From: a virus
Length of the DNA: 40,236 nucleotides
Reading direction: 5' to 3' (one strand)
IMG/VR virus record: IMGVR_UViG_3300037196_000123
Span: 1 to 40,236 of that record
Each line of letters starts with the position of its first letter. The stretch's first letter is position 1. Made by a program: the position numbers and the translations under genes. The notes beneath the pieces are model-generated. The model saw nothing but the letters and a program-made list of their open reading frames with translations, did no database searches and was not told the DNA's origin. Shown here piece by piece: positions 1,440-9,219 of this stretch.

Positions 1440-1712
1440 CTAGGCATCGACTGTTTTCTCCTCATCTTTCAGCTTACGAGAAGCTATCCTCGCCGCATCC
1501 CAACCTATCGGTTTCACGGGTACAGCGGGACGAGGTGCAGCTGGTGTTTTGGGAATAGGCTTGCTGATCACCATGAGATAGTCTTGCATCACGTCCAAGC
1601 GACGTTGCTGCTGAGCCACCTGTGCCCTCAACAGAGTGCACTCTTCTTCTAGGTGACGTCTGTAGGGAAACAGGAATCCCGATATCGCTTTGAGAAATTC
1701 GGCAAAACTCAT
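1440..1712 (-). CDS. hypothetical protein
   Basis: 90-aa ORF immediately downstream of terL on the same strand. Confidence 0.5.
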   Translation of the reverse strand: MSFAEFLKAISGFLFPYRRHLEEECTLLRAQVAQQQRRLDVMQDYLMVISKPIPKTPAAPRPAVPVKPIGWDAARIASRKLKDEEKTVDA

Positions 1713-1741
1713 GTGAACTCCCCTTTCATAATACGCTGATT

Positions 1742-4282
1742 CTACTTTGTGTTACCTCTCCAAGACGGAGGCATCACTTGACGCTTGGCCTTGTGGTTCT
1801 CCTTCTTCTTGGCAGCCACATATGTGAGGATCATTTTCTCCTGTGGGGAAGCAGCATCTATCTTCTCCTTGAGCTTCTCGTCCTCACTCTTCCGACGAGG
1901 ATTGAGCATTGACTTCAGCCCATACCGGCAATTGTGGACGAGCACTCCATTCACGAAGAATTCGTGTTCATCCTCAATTTCCAGGTCGTACACGTCCGCG
2001 AACCCCGCCTCCTGCAATTCGACTAACTGCACTGCATTGTCTACTACAGTGCTTGGTATCATCGAACTTGTCACTCCGAAACAACTTCCCACATACGATG
2101 CAAGATTTCTCAACATCGTCCAACCGTTGCTGCCTTCTCCACTTGGACTTGCAGTTGTTGGAGCAAAAGAGTTGAATACCTGTAGCGGCAAATTCTTTCT
2201 GACACTGCTTGCATGATTTGGTACTTCTAACTGGAACTCCAAAGGACTGGTTTCGAGCATGTTCGGAATGCCAGTTCCTGCCATCTGGAGAACCATGCCA
2301 CTTTCTAGCACCTTCCAACATTGCTTCAATCCATGCAGGCAAACCTCTGAGATGAGCTTCCTTGTCTGCTTGCCAATGATCTTTACAGGATAAACAATCG
2401 AGTTCATCAGGATCAACAGTCCACTTTGGTGAGTGGTCTTTGTGGTGAACATGAAATTTGGGAGGAATTGGTCCTCTATAGAATTCCCAGACATCACGGT
2501 GCAATGCGTGCCACTGAGGTCCTGTATAGTAACCACCGGGATAGTCGAGTTTGTATTTCTTTCCGTTGAAGATGACAAATTCTGGTTCCATGTAATTAGG
2601 TTCTCCCCATATCTAATACTATCCAGGGAGAAGAACCCGAAGTTAGTTGCAAATCTGTGATTCTGAGTACATGTTATCCTTCTACCATCACTGAGCACCG
2701 CTGTTACAACCTTCGCTCCTTCTCTGGTCTTCCAGGCATGAAGAACTCTACGCCATCCCTTACGAGTCATCACTCTCATTGACGATGCTACTTGTTCGAT
2801 AGGAACCTGACCATGATCAGTCATCACGGTAGTTCCTGCCACGAAGCAAGCATCATAACAATCGTCTTCCATCTGTGTGATGCCAAGATCCGACTTGAAG
2901 ACGTCGTCTAGATCCTTTGGGTTCCTCATGAGGACCGGAATGGTCTTCAGCAGTTCACTACACTCGGAAGAAATGAGCCAGACATCCTCAACTTGATCCT
3001 GCTCTTCGGCATCCAATCCGTGAAACTTCGTACCCTTGAGCAACTTGTCCATCAGGGCTGCTCCACCCTTGCGGTCGTTATCAGCCTTAGATGGATGAGG
3101 CATCCCCATCGGACGAGTTTCCTTGCCAATCTGTTGACCAATACAGTTCGGATCGTCTGTGCAGCATTCCGGAGACAGGAAGAAGTTCTTGTGCTTGGGC
3201 CTCTCAACAACAGGAGTGGACTCTACGATGAGTCGACCGATCTCTGAGCTCGTCTTCTCTGAGATGATCAGCTCTCTGTAGGTGACAACCACATTGATTG
3301 GTTTCTCTAATGTCCAGCCCAGATACTCGTGAACCTCTGACGGATTGAGAGTCGCACGATAGTTCCAGTACACCGCAGAGTAGTGAGTCTTGCCCCAGTC
3401 CATCGCCAGCCAGTGAGTTGCCCACGGCTTCCGCATCGCTTCGACTTTGTAGGACGGAAGTTGGACTGCTTCAAGATCCCAGGAATTGGCGAAGTACATT
3501 CCTTCAAGAGAATCCCAGTCTCCTTCCCAGTCTGCCTTGGCAATGACAGGATCCTTGCTCGCCAACTGCTTGGTGTACGGACCTCGCTCTGCTGAATACT
3601 TCTTCCGCTGATCATCCGTCCAACTGTAGTAATCCTGGACAGTGTATTTGTCTTCTTCCAGAGCATTCTGAACCCATATGTAGTTGTCCCAGGGATTCCA
3701 TCTCGTGAATGTGTAGTCAAGAGGATTCGGGACATCATGAAGATAGAACATCTTGCGATGGTCTTGAATAGATGAACCACGCATATTGAAAGACAGAATC
3801 AGCTTGGCCTGTTGCTTCTTCTTTCCCCAAGGAACACGAGCAGCATTCCTGATTTCTTCAATCTCTTTGAGAGTGAACTGCTCGGACTGATCTATCGCGA
3901 TGATGCTGTAGTTACCAGATCTGAAGTTTTCTTCTACGGATTTGTAGTCAGAGGCATATTTGAATTCGAGTCGGGATCCGTTTGGAAGTTTGAGAGTGGC
4001 AGGAGGGGAAGTTTTTAGATACTCATACGCAAGTTTTGGGAAATCCCGGGATATTGCCTCTAAATGAAAAGCAACAACTTGCTGAACCCAAGTCCGCATA
4101 ACCAAACAGCAGACCATTCCTGGGTTCTCATACATCAAAGCTATGAGTACCCGATCTACTCCCGATGACTTGGCAGATCCTCTCCCTCCCCCGATGCCGA
4201 CAACTGGGCACTTGCCATGTAGGAGTTCCTCGTACAGAGCTACCTGATTCGGAAGAAGGGAGATTTCCTGCTGTTTGGCCAT
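1742..4282 (-). CDS. terL: terminase large subunit precursor, interrupted by a 306-aa intein (spliced extein about 540 aa)
   Basis: Walker A-like VGIGGGRGSAKSS and Walker B-like YSIIAIDQSE are present. The C-terminal nuclease motif MEDDCYDA / CRYGL (DDxxDAxRY type) is split by the intein. TAATG overlap with the upstream gene. Confidence 0.85.
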   Translation of the reverse strand: MAKQQEISLLPNQVALYEELLHGKCPVVGIGGGRGSAKSSGVDRVLIALMYENPGMVCCLVMRTWVQQVVAFHLEAISRDFPKLAYEYLKTSPPATLKLPNGSRLEFKYASDYKSVEENFRSGNYSIIAIDQSEQFTLKEIEEIRNAARVPWGKKKQQAKLILSFNMRGSSIQDHRKMFYLHDVPNPLDYTFTRWNPWDNYIWVQNALEEDKYTVQDYYSWTDDQRKKYSAERGPYTKQLASKDPVIAKADWEGDWDSLEGMYFANSWDLEAVQLPSYKVEAMRKPWATHWLAMDWGKTHYSAVYWNYRATLNPSEVHEYLGWTLEKPINVVVTYRELIISEKTSSEIGRLIVESTPVVERPKHKNFFLSPECCTDDPNCIGQQIGKETRPMGMPHPSKADNDRKGGAALMDKLLKGTKFHGLDAEEQDQVEDVWLISSECSELLKTIPVLMRNPKDLDDVFKSDLGITQMEDDCYDACFVAGTTVMTDHGQVPIEQVASSMRVMTRKGWRRVLHAWKTREGAKVVTAVLSDGRRITCTQNHRFATNFGFFSLDSIRYGENLITWNQNLSSSTERNTNSTIPVVTIQDLSGTHCTVMSGNSIEDQFLPNFMFTTKTTHQSGLLILMNSIVYPVKIIGKQTRKLISEVCLHGLKQCWKVLESGMVLQMAGTGIPNMLETSPLEFQLEVPNHASSVRKNLPLQVFNSFAPTTASPSGEGSNGWTMLRNLASYVGSCFGVTSSMIPSTVVDNAVQLVELQEAGFADVYDLEIEDEHEFFVNGVLVHNCRYGLKSMLNPRRKSEDEKLKEKIDAASPQEKMILTYVAAKKKENHKAKRQVMPPSWRGNTK
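1931..2848 (-). mobile_element. intein in terL (residues 479-784 of the 846-aa ORF)
   Basis: Block A is CFVAGTTVMTDHG. Block B is DGRRITCTQNHRF (TxxH). Blocks F/G are VYDLEIEDEHEFFVNGVLVHN, followed by the +1 Cys (CRYGL). I checked codons TGC at 2848-2846, CAC AAT at 1936-1931 and TGC at 1930-1928 on the DNA. Confidence 0.85.
1974..2591 (-). CDS. HNH homing endonuclease, free-standing ORF nested inside the intein in a different frame
   Basis: 205-aa ORF offset by 1 nt from the terL frame. HNH_3-like core LHRDVWEFYRGPIPPKFHVHHKDHSPKWTVDPDELDCLSCKDH. Two CxxC...C..C zinc-ribbon-like units (CKQCQKEF..FCSNNCKSKW and CIVCGKLF..HCSRQCS). In-frame TAG 8 codons upstream of its ATG. GGGGAG lies 11 nt upstream. 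Confidence 0.75.
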   Translation of the reverse strand: MEPEFVIFNGKKYKLDYPGGYYTGPQWHALHRDVWEFYRGPIPPKFHVHHKDHSPKWTVDPDELDCLSCKDHWQADKEAHLRGLPAWIEAMLEGARKWHGSPDGRNWHSEHARNQSFGVPVRSTKSCKQCQKEFAATGIQLFCSNNCKSKWRRQQRLDDVEKSCIVCGKLFRSDKFDDTKHCSRQCSAVSRIAGGGVRGRVRPGN

Positions 4283-4494
4283 TACTCGGGATTGCAGGCC
4301 ACTGCCAGGTTCATGGCCATGACTGTCTCACGAAGATGGCGCATGGCTGCGGTCTTGTCTGCGCAGTCTGGAATAGCCGAATCAAAGAGCTCAGCGAACT
4401 CCTTGGCCGTTTTACGAAGGTCGTAGTAGATCATCAACTTTGTCGGAGTTGGAGCATGGTACGAGAACCAGTTGTCGATATCTTCCTGTTTCAT
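4282..4494 (-). CDS. small conserved phage protein with N-terminal WFxYHxP motif (possible helical-hairpin family)
   Basis: I place the start at the ATG at 4494, which gives an ATGA overlap with the upstream stop and has GGAG upstream. Sequence: MKQEDIDNWFSYHAPTPTKLMIYYDLRKTAKEFAELFDSAIPDCADKTAAMRHLRETVMAMNLAVACNPE. Confidence 0.65.
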   Translation of the reverse strand: MKQEDIDNWFSYHAPTPTKLMIYYDLRKTAKEFAELFDSAIPDCADKTAAMRHLRETVMAMNLAVACNPE

Positions 4495-4817
4495 TGAGTC
4501 TCCTTTTGCGAGCACCCGCGACACGTCTTTCCGTCCGCCGTGTAGATCATCACTTTCTGGCCCGGTTTAGGAATGCTCTTGCATCGCTTCATAGCCATCG
4601 CGTTAGCACCCATCCAATCTTGATGCGGCCAAGGTACAACTCCCAGCAGCCGAACGGACCGCGATAAATCTTCCAGCATGCCCGGCGGCGAGGCATCCAC
4701 AAAAACAGGAAAGTCTTGCCGAGTTTCATGCGGTCTCCTTTGTGCAAATCCTTGCACCCATCGTTTTGTGATCCCCTGTAACGGCCAACATGAAAACATC
4801 CCATTCTGGGATTTCAT
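4491..4817 (-). CDS. hypothetical protein (ATGA-coupled to terS)
   Basis: 108-aa ORF whose ATG overlaps the terS stop (ATGA at 4817-4814). Other frames are also open here, so the true coding frame or frames are uncertain. Confidence 0.4.
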   Translation of the reverse strand: MKSQNGMFSCWPLQGITKRWVQGFAQRRPHETRQDFPVFVDASPPGMLEDLSRSVRLLGVVPWPHQDWMGANAMAMKRCKSIPKPGQKVMIYTADGKTCRGCSQKETQ

Positions 4818-5281
4818 TTTCCTTGAACAACGATGTGTTTGACGACCAGTTCAATCGGACCGTCACCTTCTGCGTTAGAGAGTTGCGTCTTGTTGCCATA
4901 ACGGCGAGGCATCCACGACTGTGCCAGCCACTGGACTGTCCGGGACTTGGATTCCAGATGCTTCCAGTTCTTCTCATCGTAGATTTGGAGATCGTCAGCA
5001 CACTGATCTACCAGTGTCTGAACATGGATTGCTCTGGACTTCGCGAGAGCTAGGTCGAATGCAGGGTCTTCTAAGGAAGCTCGGTCAATCGTAGTCCTTG
5101 AGGGCAGTTCAGGATGAGCAGCACAAATCTCTCTTAAAGTGGCTGATTGCAGCAGTTCCGCAATCCTCTTCTTTGTCTCCGGAGTACACTTCGGCTTGGG
5201 ACCTCGTTTTGGCACAATTACCCCGCAATTACCCCCTGAGGCGTCTAAAACAGGCGGAGATAACACGAGATTCGTCGTCAT
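4814..5281 (-). CDS. terS: putative terminase small subunit
   Basis: 155-aa ORF upstream of terL. HTH-like segment TPETKKRIAELLQSATLREICAAHPELPSRTTI, followed by a helical oligomerisation-like region. Call rests on position and architecture only. Confidence 0.5.
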   Translation of the reverse strand: MTTNLVLSPPVLDASGGNCGVIVPKRGPKPKCTPETKKRIAELLQSATLREICAAHPELPSRTTIDRASLEDPAFDLALAKSRAIHVQTLVDQCADDLQIYDEKNWKHLESKSRTVQWLAQSWMPRRYGNKTQLSNAEGDGPIELVVKHIVVQGK

Positions 5282-6585: not shown

Positions 6586-7726
6586 GGAACTCCTTCTCAG
6601 TGATTGCCTGACCTTTGTTCTCAAACACTACACACGCGCAAGTTGGAAAAGTGGGATAATGACGACCATGACCATCTAGCCAGTCTTCACCTTTGGTGGT
6701 TCCTCTACCACGACAGATTTTACAATCAGGGTTGATGGTTTTGGTGGGCATTGGAGGACGAACCTTCACTCCGGATTCGATGTACTGACGAACCATCTCA
6801 GGAATGTATTTTGACAGAGTAGCACGATCAGCAATCTTCTTCTTCACCCAGAACTCGTCCTTGGTCATGGTCAGGTGATATATACACGCTTCATGAACCA
6901 AGCTCCCCGGAATATCTCCGAGTTCTTCTTCAAAGGTTAGAGGATCGAACTTCAACGGAGCGGAAGTCTTCGACGAAACCGGAGCGGAAACAACCCTGTT
7001 CGGATCGTACGGAGGAATGAACGGATTACCTCCACGACGTCTAACCGGAGAAGTAGAAACGGAAAGAGGGGATGCAAGGGTCTCCCTTGTCTCGGAAGAA
7101 ATCGAAGCGACGCTCTCTTCTCTTCTCTTCTCTTCTCTTTCTTCTTTATTCCGGACGCGATCGCTCGCATTACATTCCGATGGGTTTACATCCAATGATA
7201 GCGACTGACAGGGTAACTGACGAGCGACTGACGAGCGACTGATAGGTGGACTGACGAGCGACTGACGTGGTAACTGACTAGCGACTGACGGGGTGACTGA
7301 TAAGCGACTGATCTTTGCTTCATGCTTACGGTCATTTGATGCCGCAAAATGTGCCGGCTGCTTACCCATCAGGAACGTCTGATGATCAATTTCTTCATCC
7401 GGAATGCGGTCTTCGGAATCGATATCCTCCGTTGGGGATAGGTGAATCAACCCGAGTTGATACATCTTTTCTATTGCCCGTCCCACATACTTCCGGAAGT
7501 CAGGATCCAAGTTCATCTTGTTGGTCAGGAATCCTATATCGAGTCTGGGTTTCTTCCCACTTCTTCCTGCTTGACGTCTGAGGAAATCGTAGTAGTACCT
7601 CTGTTCTGGATGTAATTGAGTGTACTCAAAGTCGTCCTCTTTTTCAGTCCAATCGAAGACGTAATCTCTACGACCTTTGAGATCCTTCTGGTACTTCTTC
7701 CAGTTCTTGATTCCGATGTAAATCAT
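6557..7726 (-). CDS. replication initiator-like protein carrying the origin iterons inside its coding sequence
   Basis: 389-aa ORF between the helicase and primase genes. N-terminal winged-helix-like region. The central low-complexity segment is encoded by the iteron array and the polypurine tract. C-terminal Cys cluster CKICRGRG...CAC. Confidence 0.55.
   Translation of the reverse strand: MIYIGIKNWKKYQKDLKGRRDYVFDWTEKEDDFEYTQLHPEQRYYYDFLRRQAGRSGKKPRLDIGFLTNKMNLDPDFRKYVGRAIEKMYQLGLIHLSPTEDIDSEDRIPDEEIDHQTFLMGKQPAHFAASNDRKHEAKISRLSVTPSVASQLPRQSLVSPPISRSSVARQLPCQSLSLDVNPSECNASDRVRNKEEREEKRREESVASISSETRETLASPLSVSTSPVRRRGGNPFIPPYDPNRVVSAPVSSKTSAPLKFDPLTFEEELGDIPGSLVHEACIYHLTMTKDEFWVKKKIADRATLSKYIPEMVRQYIESGVKVRPPMPTKTINPDCKICRGRGTTKGEDWLDGHGRHYPTFPTCACVVFENKGQAITEKEFHELITARYS
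7113..7147. repeat. 35-nt homopyrimidine (plus strand) tract with (TCTTC)n repeats next to the iterons
   Basis: The sequence ctctcttctcttctcttctcttctctttcttcttt contains no purine. Confidence 0.85.
7201..7311. repeat. origin-like iteron array: 6 copies of GCGACTGA within about 23-bp units; 10 ACTGA cores at 11-12 bp spacing
   Basis: GCGACTGA at 7201, 7224, 7235, 7258, 7281 and 7304. Units read gcgactgacagggtaactgacga, gcgactgataggtggactgacga, gcgactgacgtggtaactgacta and gcgactgacggggtgactgataa. Confidence 0.8.
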
Positions 7727-9219
7727 AGATCCTCCCCAGGTGCCAACTTCATGGTCTTATCTCTTCCGCCACTCTTTTTCTTTGGAGGATCTTCCTTCTT
7801 TCCGTAGAGAACTGGAACGTCGTCGTCATGGTCATGAATGTACTCAGTACCAGGATCCATCGACAAATTGTGATCGACAAACTTACCAGTCCCGCGACTT
7901 TTACTGGAATGAACCTTCATTTCATATCCCGACTTCAGATCGTCGTCAGAATACACCGACATAGCAAGATCGGTATCCTGCTGAATTTCTGATCCGTAGA
8001 ATATCGAGTTAAGATCGTAGGTTCCGTCATTCTTCAGAGCATTCTTGTTAGACTCACGGTTGACTTGAGCAGGAGAAATCAGCAAAAATTTGTTGGTTTT
8101 CTTACACCAAGCGATTGCTCTCGCAACCATCGCTCCGGTTGCTGACTTCTGATCTTTGGATTCAGGAACTGTTAGGTGAGACAGATAGTCAACCACCACA
8201 ACTGTGTACTGATTCTTCTCGACATTAGCTTCGTAGTAGTCCTGAATCTCATTAAGAGACCAGATTGCTTGAACATCAACCGTTCCTCTTACGAGAGTGC
8301 GGCTCTTGATATCGTCAATGACTTCACAAATGTGGTTGTATTCTCTATCACTGAACTCGCCACTCTGCACACGGAGCTTACTGGGTAAGTCATAATCCTC
8401 GTTGCGGAAAACGTAGGAGTGAACGAGAGCCAGACTTTCCCAAGTCTCCTTGATGGTGGCTTCCAAAGTGATATAGAGGATGTTTTCTCCATTGCGAGCC
8501 ATGTTGTAGACGACAGAGTTCAGGAAAGTAGATTTGCCATCACCAGATGTACCAAGGATGAATAGAGCCTTTCCTTTCTTGCACTTCATCTTGGCATCAA
8601 TGAACTTGAATCCTAGGCGGATGATTTCTCCGTCGTTTATACGATGGTCCTGAATACTCTGCTTAACGATTTCTGTGTTTTCATGAAGCATTCCAGCGAA
8701 TTCCTCGGAAGGAAGCTCGATGGAAGAGATACGAGATTCTTGTTCACGAACCCAGGAAGGAACTTCATCAGGAGACAGCACCCTTTTGGTTCTGGGAATC
8801 TGCGTCTTACCCTTAGAGGATCCGGTAGCAGAATGGGCCATTCGGTAGGTGAATAGGCGTGCTGACCTCTTAGCCTCAGCAATTGTTTCCGAAGCAAGAA
8901 CATCAAAGTCGAGGTTCTTTTCGAAGGAGGGTATTTCCGTACGAAGCTCAATGATTTCGTCTTCAACAGTGGAGGCCACGATGGGAATTCCCTTGGCGAA
9001 CTGAACCACTGCATCAGTGCTTGGTGGACATCTTCTGAACTTTTCATCATAATCCAGAACACATCCCAAGGTTATCCAGTAGGGTAGATCAGATTCATCC
9101 TTGCTGGGACAAGTCACTGCCAAAGCGTAGGCATCGTTGAGACGACCGCGATACTTCGTGATTTCGGTGTGTCTGTCAGGATCAGAAGTGAGAAGATGTA
9201 TCAATTCCTTGATAGCCAC
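7723..9219 (-). CDS. DnaB-family replicative helicase
   Basis: Walker A GTSGDGKST, H1a-like ITLEA, Walker B VVVVDYLSHL, H3-like SPAQVNRES and H4-like GSEIQQDTDLAMSVY. Confidence 0.8.
   Translation of the reverse strand: MAIKELIHLLTSDPDRHTEITKYRGRLNDAYALAVTCPSKDESDLPYWITLGCVLDYDEKFRRCPPSTDAVVQFAKGIPIVASTVEDEIIELRTEIPSFEKNLDFDVLASETIAEAKRSARLFTYRMAHSATGSSKGKTQIPRTKRVLSPDEVPSWVREQESRISSIELPSEEFAGMLHENTEIVKQSIQDHRINDGEIIRLGFKFIDAKMKCKKGKALFILGTSGDGKSTFLNSVVYNMARNGENILYITLEATIKETWESLALVHSYVFRNEDYDLPSKLRVQSGEFSDREYNHICEVIDDIKSRTLVRGTVDVQAIWSLNEIQDYYEANVEKNQYTVVVVDYLSHLTVPESKDQKSATGAMVARAIAWCKKTNKFLLISPAQVNRESNKNALKNDGTYDLNSIFYGSEIQQDTDLAMSVYSDDDLKSGYEMKVHSSKSRGTGKFVDHNLSMDPGTEYIHDHDDDVPVLYGKKEDPPKKKSGGRDKTMKLAPGEDL

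Follow-up and report, generated by a model that had tools for sequence, protein, structure and literature searches.

The window analysed here is the whole of the IMG/VR virus record IMGVR_UViG_3300037196_000123, 40,236 nucleotides (nt) in length. It contains a terL gene for the large terminase subunit (TerL), which is interrupted in its nuclease motif by an intein of 306 amino acids (aa). A second open reading frame (ORF), for a 205-aa protein assigned to the HNH_3 family of homing endonucleases, lies inside the intein-coding DNA in another frame of the same strand. We describe this two-frame arrangement (Table 1), compare it with homologous loci, and weigh how it may work.

A class-1 intein and an out-of-frame HNH gene in terL

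The terL precursor of the window is one continuous 846-codon ORF, not the pair of ORFs within an intein that marks a fractured gene, and in Pfam it matched Terminase_3 (weakly) and Intein_splicing. The residues MEDDCYDA stand before Cys1 of the insert, and its final VHN is followed by CRYGL, so that the TerL nuclease motif is split as DDCYDA|CRYGL. For the intein, Pfam gave Intein_splicing at 48.5 bits (cutoff, 35.8; E=1.1e-12) and Hint_2 at 26.5 bits, slightly under its cutoff of 28.4 (E=9e-6). The boundaries agree with the N-terminal start and the C-terminal end seen in complete intein-bearing terL ORFs among the 64 homologous overprinted loci described below, and the block F/G motif is kept in all 64. 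By these features the insert is a class-1 intein at a precise site. Because TerL is essential and the catalytic residues are intact, we infer that the precursor splices.

The HNH ORF matched Pfam HNH_3 at 27.0 bits (cutoff, 24.8; E=3.6e-6), and PF13392 was carried by all 120 of the HNH homologues listed. It sits wholly within the intein, between block B (2657-2668) and the His-Asn terminus (1931), and its stop codon, TGA, falls within block F.

An earlier note on this DNA, made from the letters and their ORFs, had described much of this anatomy. Its 306-aa intein with blocks A, B, F and G in the terL nuclease motif agrees with the coordinates, the Pfam matches and the catalytic residues found here. 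Its separate 205-aa HNH ORF out of frame with the intein, with an ATG of its own, a TAG eight codons upstream and a stop in block F, is borne out by the sequence and the HNH_3 match. It had also called the linker of the intein rich in Ser, Thr and Asn, and in the terL frame these residues do make up 29% of the linker in the window.

The open second frame and its recurrence in relatives

Across the 206 overlapped codons of the window, the intein frame has 0 stops, as the earlier note had stated, and the third frame has 15. That note put the chance of such an open frame at about 1e-4, which proved overstated. Hereafter the +1 frame of an HNH ORF denotes the host (terL/intein) frame, HNH being -1 relative to the host frame. 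In 15 distinct homologous HNH loci with a closed +1 frame, which served as the control for frame openness, this frame held 3.3 stops per 100 codons; about 7 stops are thus expected over the overlap, and the probability of none is about 1e-3. A synonymous-codon permutation gave a probability of no stops of 0.09 for the window ORF, and a median of 0.046 across relatives. We judged the permutation too conservative, because the codon content has already been purged, and relied on the natural closed-frame control instead. The decisive evidence is the comparison with relatives.

A profile of the HNH family, built first from two sequences and then from a larger set, collected 1264 representatives at E<=1e-30. 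The profile scan of IMG/VR with HNH returned 123 relatives, from which 80 loci were fetched; with the window and L001 they make up the 82 places encoding HNH that we examined. The first homologue, P0001 (35% identity), lies on a 740-bp contig, where the HNH ORF has its own Shine-Dalgarno (SD) sequence and ATG after a stop. The +1 frame of this contig is open throughout and ends in ...VYNLTVEDEHEYFANDLLVAN|CDALRY, which is the C-terminus of an intein.

A comparison with related terL inteins had been proposed in the earlier note. In 64 of the 82 places (54 distinct), HNH lies within a terL intein and has the frame relation described above. The host ORFs of these 64 places span 600-1539 codons in the +1 frame, and the +2 frame was always closed. 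HNH identity in the 54 distinct loci was 31-43%. None of the 54 had a stop in the +1 frame, versus 2-11 stops in each of the 15 closed-frame loci, which upholds the view that the read-through frame is maintained. A C-terminal consensus, VY.L.V....F.ANG.LVHN|C, was present in all 64, the +1 residue being Cys, and Ser in one locus. The N-terminal junction read NH|C[FLIV] in every overprinted host ORF with a complete 5' end; it was out of view in four loci that end at the contig end, and no N-terminal domain was recognisable in L001 (740 bp). The host TerLs belong to the Terminase_3, Terminase_6 and T7-like types. The identical 846-aa product of the window was found on four independent contigs, with terS (Sf6_terminase) upstream.

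Cultured phages also have the layout. In Clostridium phage phiCDHM19, Tetrasphaera phage TJE1 and Acinetobacter phage Highwayman, the annotated terL reads through HNH in the +1 frame, while HNH itself lacks annotation as an ORF; cultured phiCD119 shares the arrangement. The HNH region of phiCD119 is annotated as a 'hypothetical protein' overlapping ter2.

No long in-frame HNH fusion was found in the best 150 of the 1264 representatives or in the best 120 database hits (all 161-395 aa). A profile of the concatenated N- and C-terminal splicing regions, aimed at mini-intein relatives or relatives with an in-frame homing endonuclease (HEN), gave one uninformative match.

Selected frame and translation start of the HNH gene

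Within the overlap, the mean pairwise aa identity among 52 distinct inteins was 0.376 when the DNA was read in the HNH frame, and 0.218 in that of the intein. Substitutions were counted by codon position in closely related pairs from five or more clades. In the overlap they fell mostly at HNH codon position 3, which equals intein-frame position 2 (250 versus 98 and 74 at the other positions), while those in the splicing domain fell mostly at host-frame position 3 (214 versus 89 and 75). Because the peaks move between codon positions, purifying selection changes frame at the boundaries of the overlap, and because the overlap substitutions sit at HNH position 3, HNH is a real protein-coding gene. 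The linker of the intein, judged by these counts, is constrained solely to stay free of stops.

The closed-frame loci had 3.3 stops per 100 codons of HNH in the +1 frame and 9.8 in the +2 frame, a threefold difference. The universal -1 relation may follow from this, because only the +1 frame of HNH is readily cleared of stops.

For the start analysis we took the first ATG after the upstream stop in the 54 distinct loci and scored SD-like tetramers at positions -18 to -5. The start codon was ATG in 51 loci and GTG in three, and the in-frame stop upstream lay a median of four codons away. An SD-like tetramer preceded 24 of the 54 starts (44%), versus 10.9% of 2347 control ATGs within the same host ORFs (p=4e-10). 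HNH is probably translated independently from its internal ATG.

Two further features of the start region were observed. In the window (2603-2632, minus strand), the SD (GGGGAGAA) could pair with UUCUCCC 17-24 nt upstream, in a hairpin that would mask the SD until a terL ribosome passes. The RNA fold around the HNH start was no better than that of shuffled sequences (z=-0.03), so the hairpin may be a matter of chance and we claim no regulation. A subgroup of loci (L003-L012, L025, L026, L064, L072-L076 and L079) has a common AAAATTAAAACnnAAAAAGG-ATG context just before the HNH start, whose TAA closes the HNH frame and which encodes K-I/F-K-T-x-K-G-W in the intein frame. This subgroup is without a classical SD, and its hosts may not use SD-led initiation.

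Sequence and predicted structure of the HNH protein

Conservation was assessed in alignments A2 and A3 (HNH, 50-60 relatives) and A4 (splicing domain, 35 aligned relatives). Three His residues of HNH were invariant in A2 and A3, namely the general-base pair, His-49 and His-50, and the metal ligand, His-72; Asp-52 is also present in the window copy. The eight Cys residues of two zinc-ribbon-like modules in the C-terminal half were all invariant or nearly so in the same alignments. The modules presumably bind DNA, and their fold weakly matched the YacG zinc finger.

An AlphaFold2 model of HNH built with a 60-sequence alignment reached a pLDDT (predicted local distance difference test) score of 91.2 and a predicted template modelling score of 0.51. 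The modelled protein is elongated and multi-domain: a beta-rich region at the N-terminus is followed by the HNH motif, then by a long helical hairpin and finally by the two zinc-ribbon modules. Its last ca. 15 residues, which overlap block F, are poorly conserved, have low pLDDT and form a disordered tail. At the block F overlap, the intein sequence wins over that of HNH.

Among PDB sequences, the closest to the HNH profile was I-HmuI (1U3E), a marginal match (E=0.019). The motif ...HHKD..NN...NL......H of the HNH family aligns with residues 44-103 of I-HmuI, which has DNA-binding domains of its own where the window family has two zinc ribbons in the C-terminal half. A Foldseek search of the whole HNH model against PDB gave no significant match, and no data on site-specific cleavage or nicking by this HNH subfamily were found in the literature searched.

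Insertion sites, mobility, and fractured and free-standing relatives

The intein-less homologue L087, a TerL with 40% identity, reads ...LEQDVADS-ARYGLKSMLRP without an insert; it was the single intein-less relative when the spliced TerL was scanned against IMG/VR and the JGI metagenomes. A closer comparison came from Clostridioides difficile phages. The intein-less terL of CD1801 is 94% identical in DNA to that of phiCDHM19 up to the junction, where the empty site HDDA-P-DALTG faces HDDA|intein|C-DATTG (L090 1-1407 versus L082 443-2842). Such presence and absence would be the pattern expected of homing. The divergence of the splicing domain was correlated with that of HNH (Mantel r=0.79, 0 of 2000 permutations); therefore, the two travel together.

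Three adjacent insertion points, NH|CxDAxRY, NHx|CDAxRY and DA|CRYG, were used within a four-residue span of the TerL nuclease motif. The users of DA|CRYG are the window, L016, L024, L034, L049 and Highwayman. The site types were not monophyletic in the HNH tree, which suggests repeated small shifts of the site in the TerL motif.

The +1 frame was closed in 18 of the 82 places, and not all of these are simple free-standing genes. At least eight distinct loci (L013, L017/L018, L030/L032, L033, L037, L042, L046/L047 and L061) have a fractured terL with an HNH gene of the same family. Where the upstream region is present, an ORF of ca. 480-545 codons encodes the N-extein and the N-terminal intein part (IntN) and stops at the 5' end of HNH. 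The C-terminal intein part (IntC) starts at an ATG inside the 3' end of HNH and runs into C[x]DA.RY. Seven loci have an IntC of 44-62 aa, and L046/L047 has one of 81 aa. Free-standing HNH genes were found just downstream of terL in L063, L071 and Lactobacillus phage CL2, in which gp3 lies between terL and the portal gene. The overprinted, fractured and free-standing states were interspersed in a neighbour-joining tree of HNH, a tree of low resolution.

As a side observation, some TerL precursors apparently contain two inteins. In L021 (2099-6715, 1539 aa) and L060 (97-3873, 1259 aa), a canonical intein with an in-frame LAGLIDADG endonuclease lies upstream and an overprinted-HNH intein occupies the nuclease motif. 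Two more precursors, those of L019 (1090 aa) and L080 (1024 aa), are of unusual length.

Neighbouring genes

The space between terS and terL holds a 70-aa ORF whose stop directly adjoins the ATG of terL. This ORF matched Pfam Acb2_Tad1_hairpin (E=4.2e-11; 43 bits versus a cutoff of 27) and is a candidate anti-CBASS/anti-Thoeris cyclic-nucleotide sponge. The long ORFs of the window are on the minus strand, and no tRNA genes were found in the window. Nine of 10 large window ORFs tested (263-1688 aa) had no PHROG match at 1e-5, and a DnaB-like helicase was the only recognisable product among the 10. The terL DNA matched none of 50,697 phage records, and no close relatives of the phage were found in the INPHARED, IMG/VR or JGI collections. 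The window phage is very divergent.

Table 1 Features of the terL locus in the window, with the positions of three fractured terL loci of relatives.
Feature	Coordinates	Strand	Description
terL precursor ORF	1742..4282	-	846 aa, range including the stop codon; N-extein, intein and C-extein; from the ORF list and its translation
N-extein	2849..4282	-	aa 1-478, ending ...GITQMEDDCYDA; alignable to intein-less L087
Class-1 intein	1931..2848	-	306 aa, aa 479-784, Cys1 to His-Asn, in the terL frame
N-terminal splicing region	2592..2848	-	ca. 86 aa; profile of relatives matches residues 1-84, E=8e-31
Block A Cys1	2846-2848	-	directly after ...DDCYDA; C1 invariant in 35 aligned relatives
Block B T61-Q-N-H64	2657-2668	-	TxxH; H64 invariant and T61 at least 90% conserved (A4)
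Blocks F and G	1931..1993	-	VYDLEIEDEHEFFVNGVLVHN; His-Asn end, then +1 Cys; HNH stop codon (1974-1976) inside
C-extein	1745..1930	-	62 aa, +1 nucleophile Cys first: CRYGLKSMLNP...
HNH_3 homing-endonuclease ORF (predicted)	1974..2591	-	205 aa and stop; -1 frame, offset 2 nt; two-frame overlap of 206 codons
HNH-frame TAG stop	2613..2615	-	8 codons before the HNH ATG; blocks read-in from upstream
SD-like GGGGAG	2603..2608	-	11 nt before the HNH ATG (2589-2591)
HNH catalytic motif region	2364..2453	-	HNH residues 47-76: HVHHKD...ELDCL...H72...D76
Two CxxC...CxxxC zinc-ribbon-like modules	2034..2213	-	C127, C130, C143, C147 and C164, C167, C182, C186
70-aa ORF	4285-4494	-	between terS and terL
terS	4817-5281	-	Sf6_terminase type, E=1.6e-10
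DnaB-like helicase	7723-9219	
Fractured terL loci of relatives	L013 4498-6800; L017 4543-6780; L030 395-2600		

Discussion

The locus probably holds a mobile composite element, made up of a class-1 intein in the terL nuclease motif and an HNH_3 homing-endonuclease gene that is translated on its own, in the -1 frame of the intein's insertion loop. The anatomy, the conserved two-frame layout, the switch of selection between frames, the enrichment of start signals, the presence/absence polymorphism in relatives and the co-divergence of the two parts all support such an element. In its proposed working, ribosomes reading terL would pass through the HNH gene and make an unconserved linker of ca. 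180 aa. The N- and C-terminal splicing blocks would then excise the 306-aa insert and rejoin TerL as ...DDCYDA-CRYGL.... Other ribosomes would start at the internal SD and ATG (2591) and produce the 205-aa nuclease, in which an HNH core like that of I-HmuI is predicted to be joined by a helical linker and two zinc ribbons. In a mixed infection, the nuclease would cut intein-less terL alleles, and repair would copy the intein and the HNH gene together.

Several points weigh against this interpretation. Splicing, internal initiation, the activity and target of the nuclease, and homing are all predictions from sequence comparison. Purifying selection and mobility were seen in sister lineages, and no close relatives of the window phage were found in the collections searched. 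The SD spacing of 11 nt in the window is at the long end of the usual range. A single-sequence AlphaFold2 model of the 306-aa intein had a pLDDT of 32 and was uninformative on the linker. Moreover, four positions that are N, N, N and H in at least 90% of relatives are T58, V59, E63 and D76 in the window HNH, and position 63, Asn in the relatives and Glu here, aligns with the central Asn, N87, of I-HmuI. The phiCDHM19 copy retains N58, N59 and N63. The window copy of HNH may be weakened or inactive.

These replacements raise the doubtful, though not negligible, alternative that the HNH ORF of the window is a decaying or inactive relic. The insert would then amount in practice to a mini-intein, vertically inherited and with a long linker of junk sequence, and the HNH ORF would be open solely because its decay is recent. 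The branch of the window HNH, among the longest in the HNH tree, and the lack of close relatives for selection tests also fit such a relic. On the other hand, the 205-codon ORF, its ATG, its SD, the eight Cys residues, H49, H50, D52 and H72 are all intact, and the model of the protein reached a pLDDT of 91. A long-unselected ORF would probably have gained stops, as the 15 stops of the unused third frame indicate, and in sister lineages the HNH frame is clearly under purifying selection.

Programmed -1 ribosomal frameshifting, which would yield a fusion of N-extein, IntN and HNH, is very improbable as the means by which HNH is made. HNH is -1 to the host in all 64 overprinted loci, which is the classical direction of frameshifting, and an internal ORF would otherwise be awkward to translate while many ribosomes move along terL. 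However, the shift would have to fall between the upstream stop (a median of four codons away; eight in the window) and the conserved ATG, and no slippery heptamer of the form X XXY YYZ lies between the TAG (2615) and the ATG (2591) of the window. The same HNH family stands alone as a gene in fractured terL loci and beside terL, and the uniform -1 relation is more simply explained by the threefold lower stop density of the +1 frame. Because of the upstream stop, the conserved ATG and the enrichment of SD-like motifs at the HNH start, independent internal initiation is favoured over frameshifting.

We give almost no credence to an assembly or sequencing artefact, in which a canonical intein's ordinary HNH domain, lying in frame, would be masked by a pair of compensating indels. 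The permutation probability of 0.09 leaves room for it when the window sequence is taken singly. However, the 846-aa product is identical on the four contigs, the layout with its own ATG and upstream stop recurs in the 54 distinct loci and in three cultured phage genomes, the codon-position pattern changes frame exactly at the overlap, and long in-frame relatives were absent from the best 150 representatives and the best 120 database hits. Compensating sequencing errors can be considered excluded for the layout of the window. Equally far-fetched is the idea that the HNH region is a group I or II intron within the intein and is lost from the RNA: HNH_3 genes are common in phage group I introns, and I-HmuI is itself intron-encoded, but an Rfam scan of 1500-4500 found no intron or other RNA family at E<=0.1, the fold around the HNH start did not exceed shuffles, and a stop-free host frame, as in the 54 distinct relatives, is needless for an intron.

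An intein carrying an overprinted HNH gene has counterparts in published systems. The layout, which the earlier note had set apart from the usual in-frame and fractured arrangements, is not unprecedented: inteins with out-of-frame endonucleases are already known and were first described in 2025 (bioRxiv 10.1101/2025.01.02.630785). In that work, Gosselin, Arsenault and Gogarten surveyed PhagesDB for actinophage inteins with out-of-frame endonucleases, many of them in terL. The endonucleases were either antisense (LAGLIDADG, Vsr-like) or in 'frame 3' (endonuclease VII-like), the latter type being stated as previously unreported (bioRxiv 10.1101/2025.01.02.630785). TerL (gp2) of Gordonia phage Keitabear resembles that of the window in its contiguous intein with a same-strand 'frame 3' endonuclease ORF in the HEN-insertion region, in a stop-free host frame with a linker without recognisable fold, and in its proposed origin from an intein that a free-standing homing endonuclease gene had invaded. 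In contrast, the Keitabear nuclease is endonuclease VII-like (CVDHDH...) and that of the window is of the HNH_3 family with two zinc ribbons. The two ORFs showed no similarity (BLASTP E=0.57), which places the window HNH outside the published clade. The Keitabear intein lies in the ATPase motif (...LVM|C...SHN|TRWHEDD) and that of the window in the nuclease motif (DA|CRY). The published cases are from actinophages, whereas the present family occurs in Clostridioides, Acinetobacter and Tetrasphaera phages and many metagenomic lineages.

Arsenault et al. 2025 (PMC11855218) reported ShiLan-type 'hidden' out-of-frame HNH ORFs in phage DNA methylase genes, without a splicing domain. By their description these are like the window HNH, with ca. 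195-205 aa, zinc fingers, a third-frame position and an open host frame. In ShiLan, however, the read-through peptide stays in the host protein and there are no intein blocks; its HNH has a GTG start and no detectable ribosome-binding site, leaderless initiation being proposed, whereas the present family has ATG and SD-like enrichment. Both published out-of-frame cases are also 'frame 3'. Canonical bifunctional inteins share with the window the Hint fold, a conserved catalytic motif of an essential gene as the site, and an endonuclease between blocks B and F, and they share with the present family the presence/absence polymorphism typical of homing. Their HEN (LAGLIDADG or HNH) is in frame, whereas that of the window would be a separate polypeptide from another frame, and the in-frame filler is unconserved.

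In the fractured genes of Dassa et al. 2009 (PMC2677866), GIY-YIG or Vsr-like endonucleases lie between split-intein halves. Inteins, in their proposal, are invaded by endonuclease genes that were free-standing, and HNH endonucleases were predicted to be able to fracture genes as well (PMC2677866). As in the window, the endonuclease gene of these fractured genes has its own start and stop at the HEN-insertion point, and its 3' end overlaps the C-terminal part of the intein. The window differs in that its host frame is without a stop and its intein is contiguous and predicted to be cis-splicing. The Dassa-type arrangement with an HNH endonuclease is found in the at least eight fractured terL loci homologous to the window. 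The earlier note had seen the layout as an intermediate between inteins with an in-frame endonuclease and fractured genes; these loci support the fractured side of that idea, and on the other side no in-frame HNH was found in the best 150 of the 1264 representatives. In the literature searched, there was no mention of an intein in phiCD119, phiCDHM19 or TJE1, nor of the present nuclease family, insertion site, host range or link to HNH-fractured terL.

We lean slightly towards the view that one HNH_3/terL-intein lineage preserves all stages of the route, long hypothesised, from a free-standing homing endonuclease gene to an invaded intein and a fractured gene, namely HNH free-standing beside terL, overprinted within the intein, and between split-intein halves, with the overprinted state both stable and mobile. 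As part of this view, the overprinted state would have persisted through deep divergence, to ca. 30-40% aa identity, and across three TerL families and three adjacent sites.

In these loci, the acquisition of endonucleases by inteins and the splitting of essential genes would be recorded at the level of sequence, a course modelled in 2009 and glimpsed in actinophages in 2025. Overlapped genes like this HNH escape annotation. The split-intein relatives, with an IntC of 44-62 aa, may serve as new trans-splicing pairs. The arrangement raises the questions of whether cis-splicing is possible across an unselected linker of ca. 180 aa, how initiation occurs in the -1 frame of a heavily translated late gene, and whether HNH drives homing of the whole intein. 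With its wide occurrence, and with members in cultured phages of Clostridioides difficile, Acinetobacter and Tetrasphaera, the overprinted family makes these questions directly testable.

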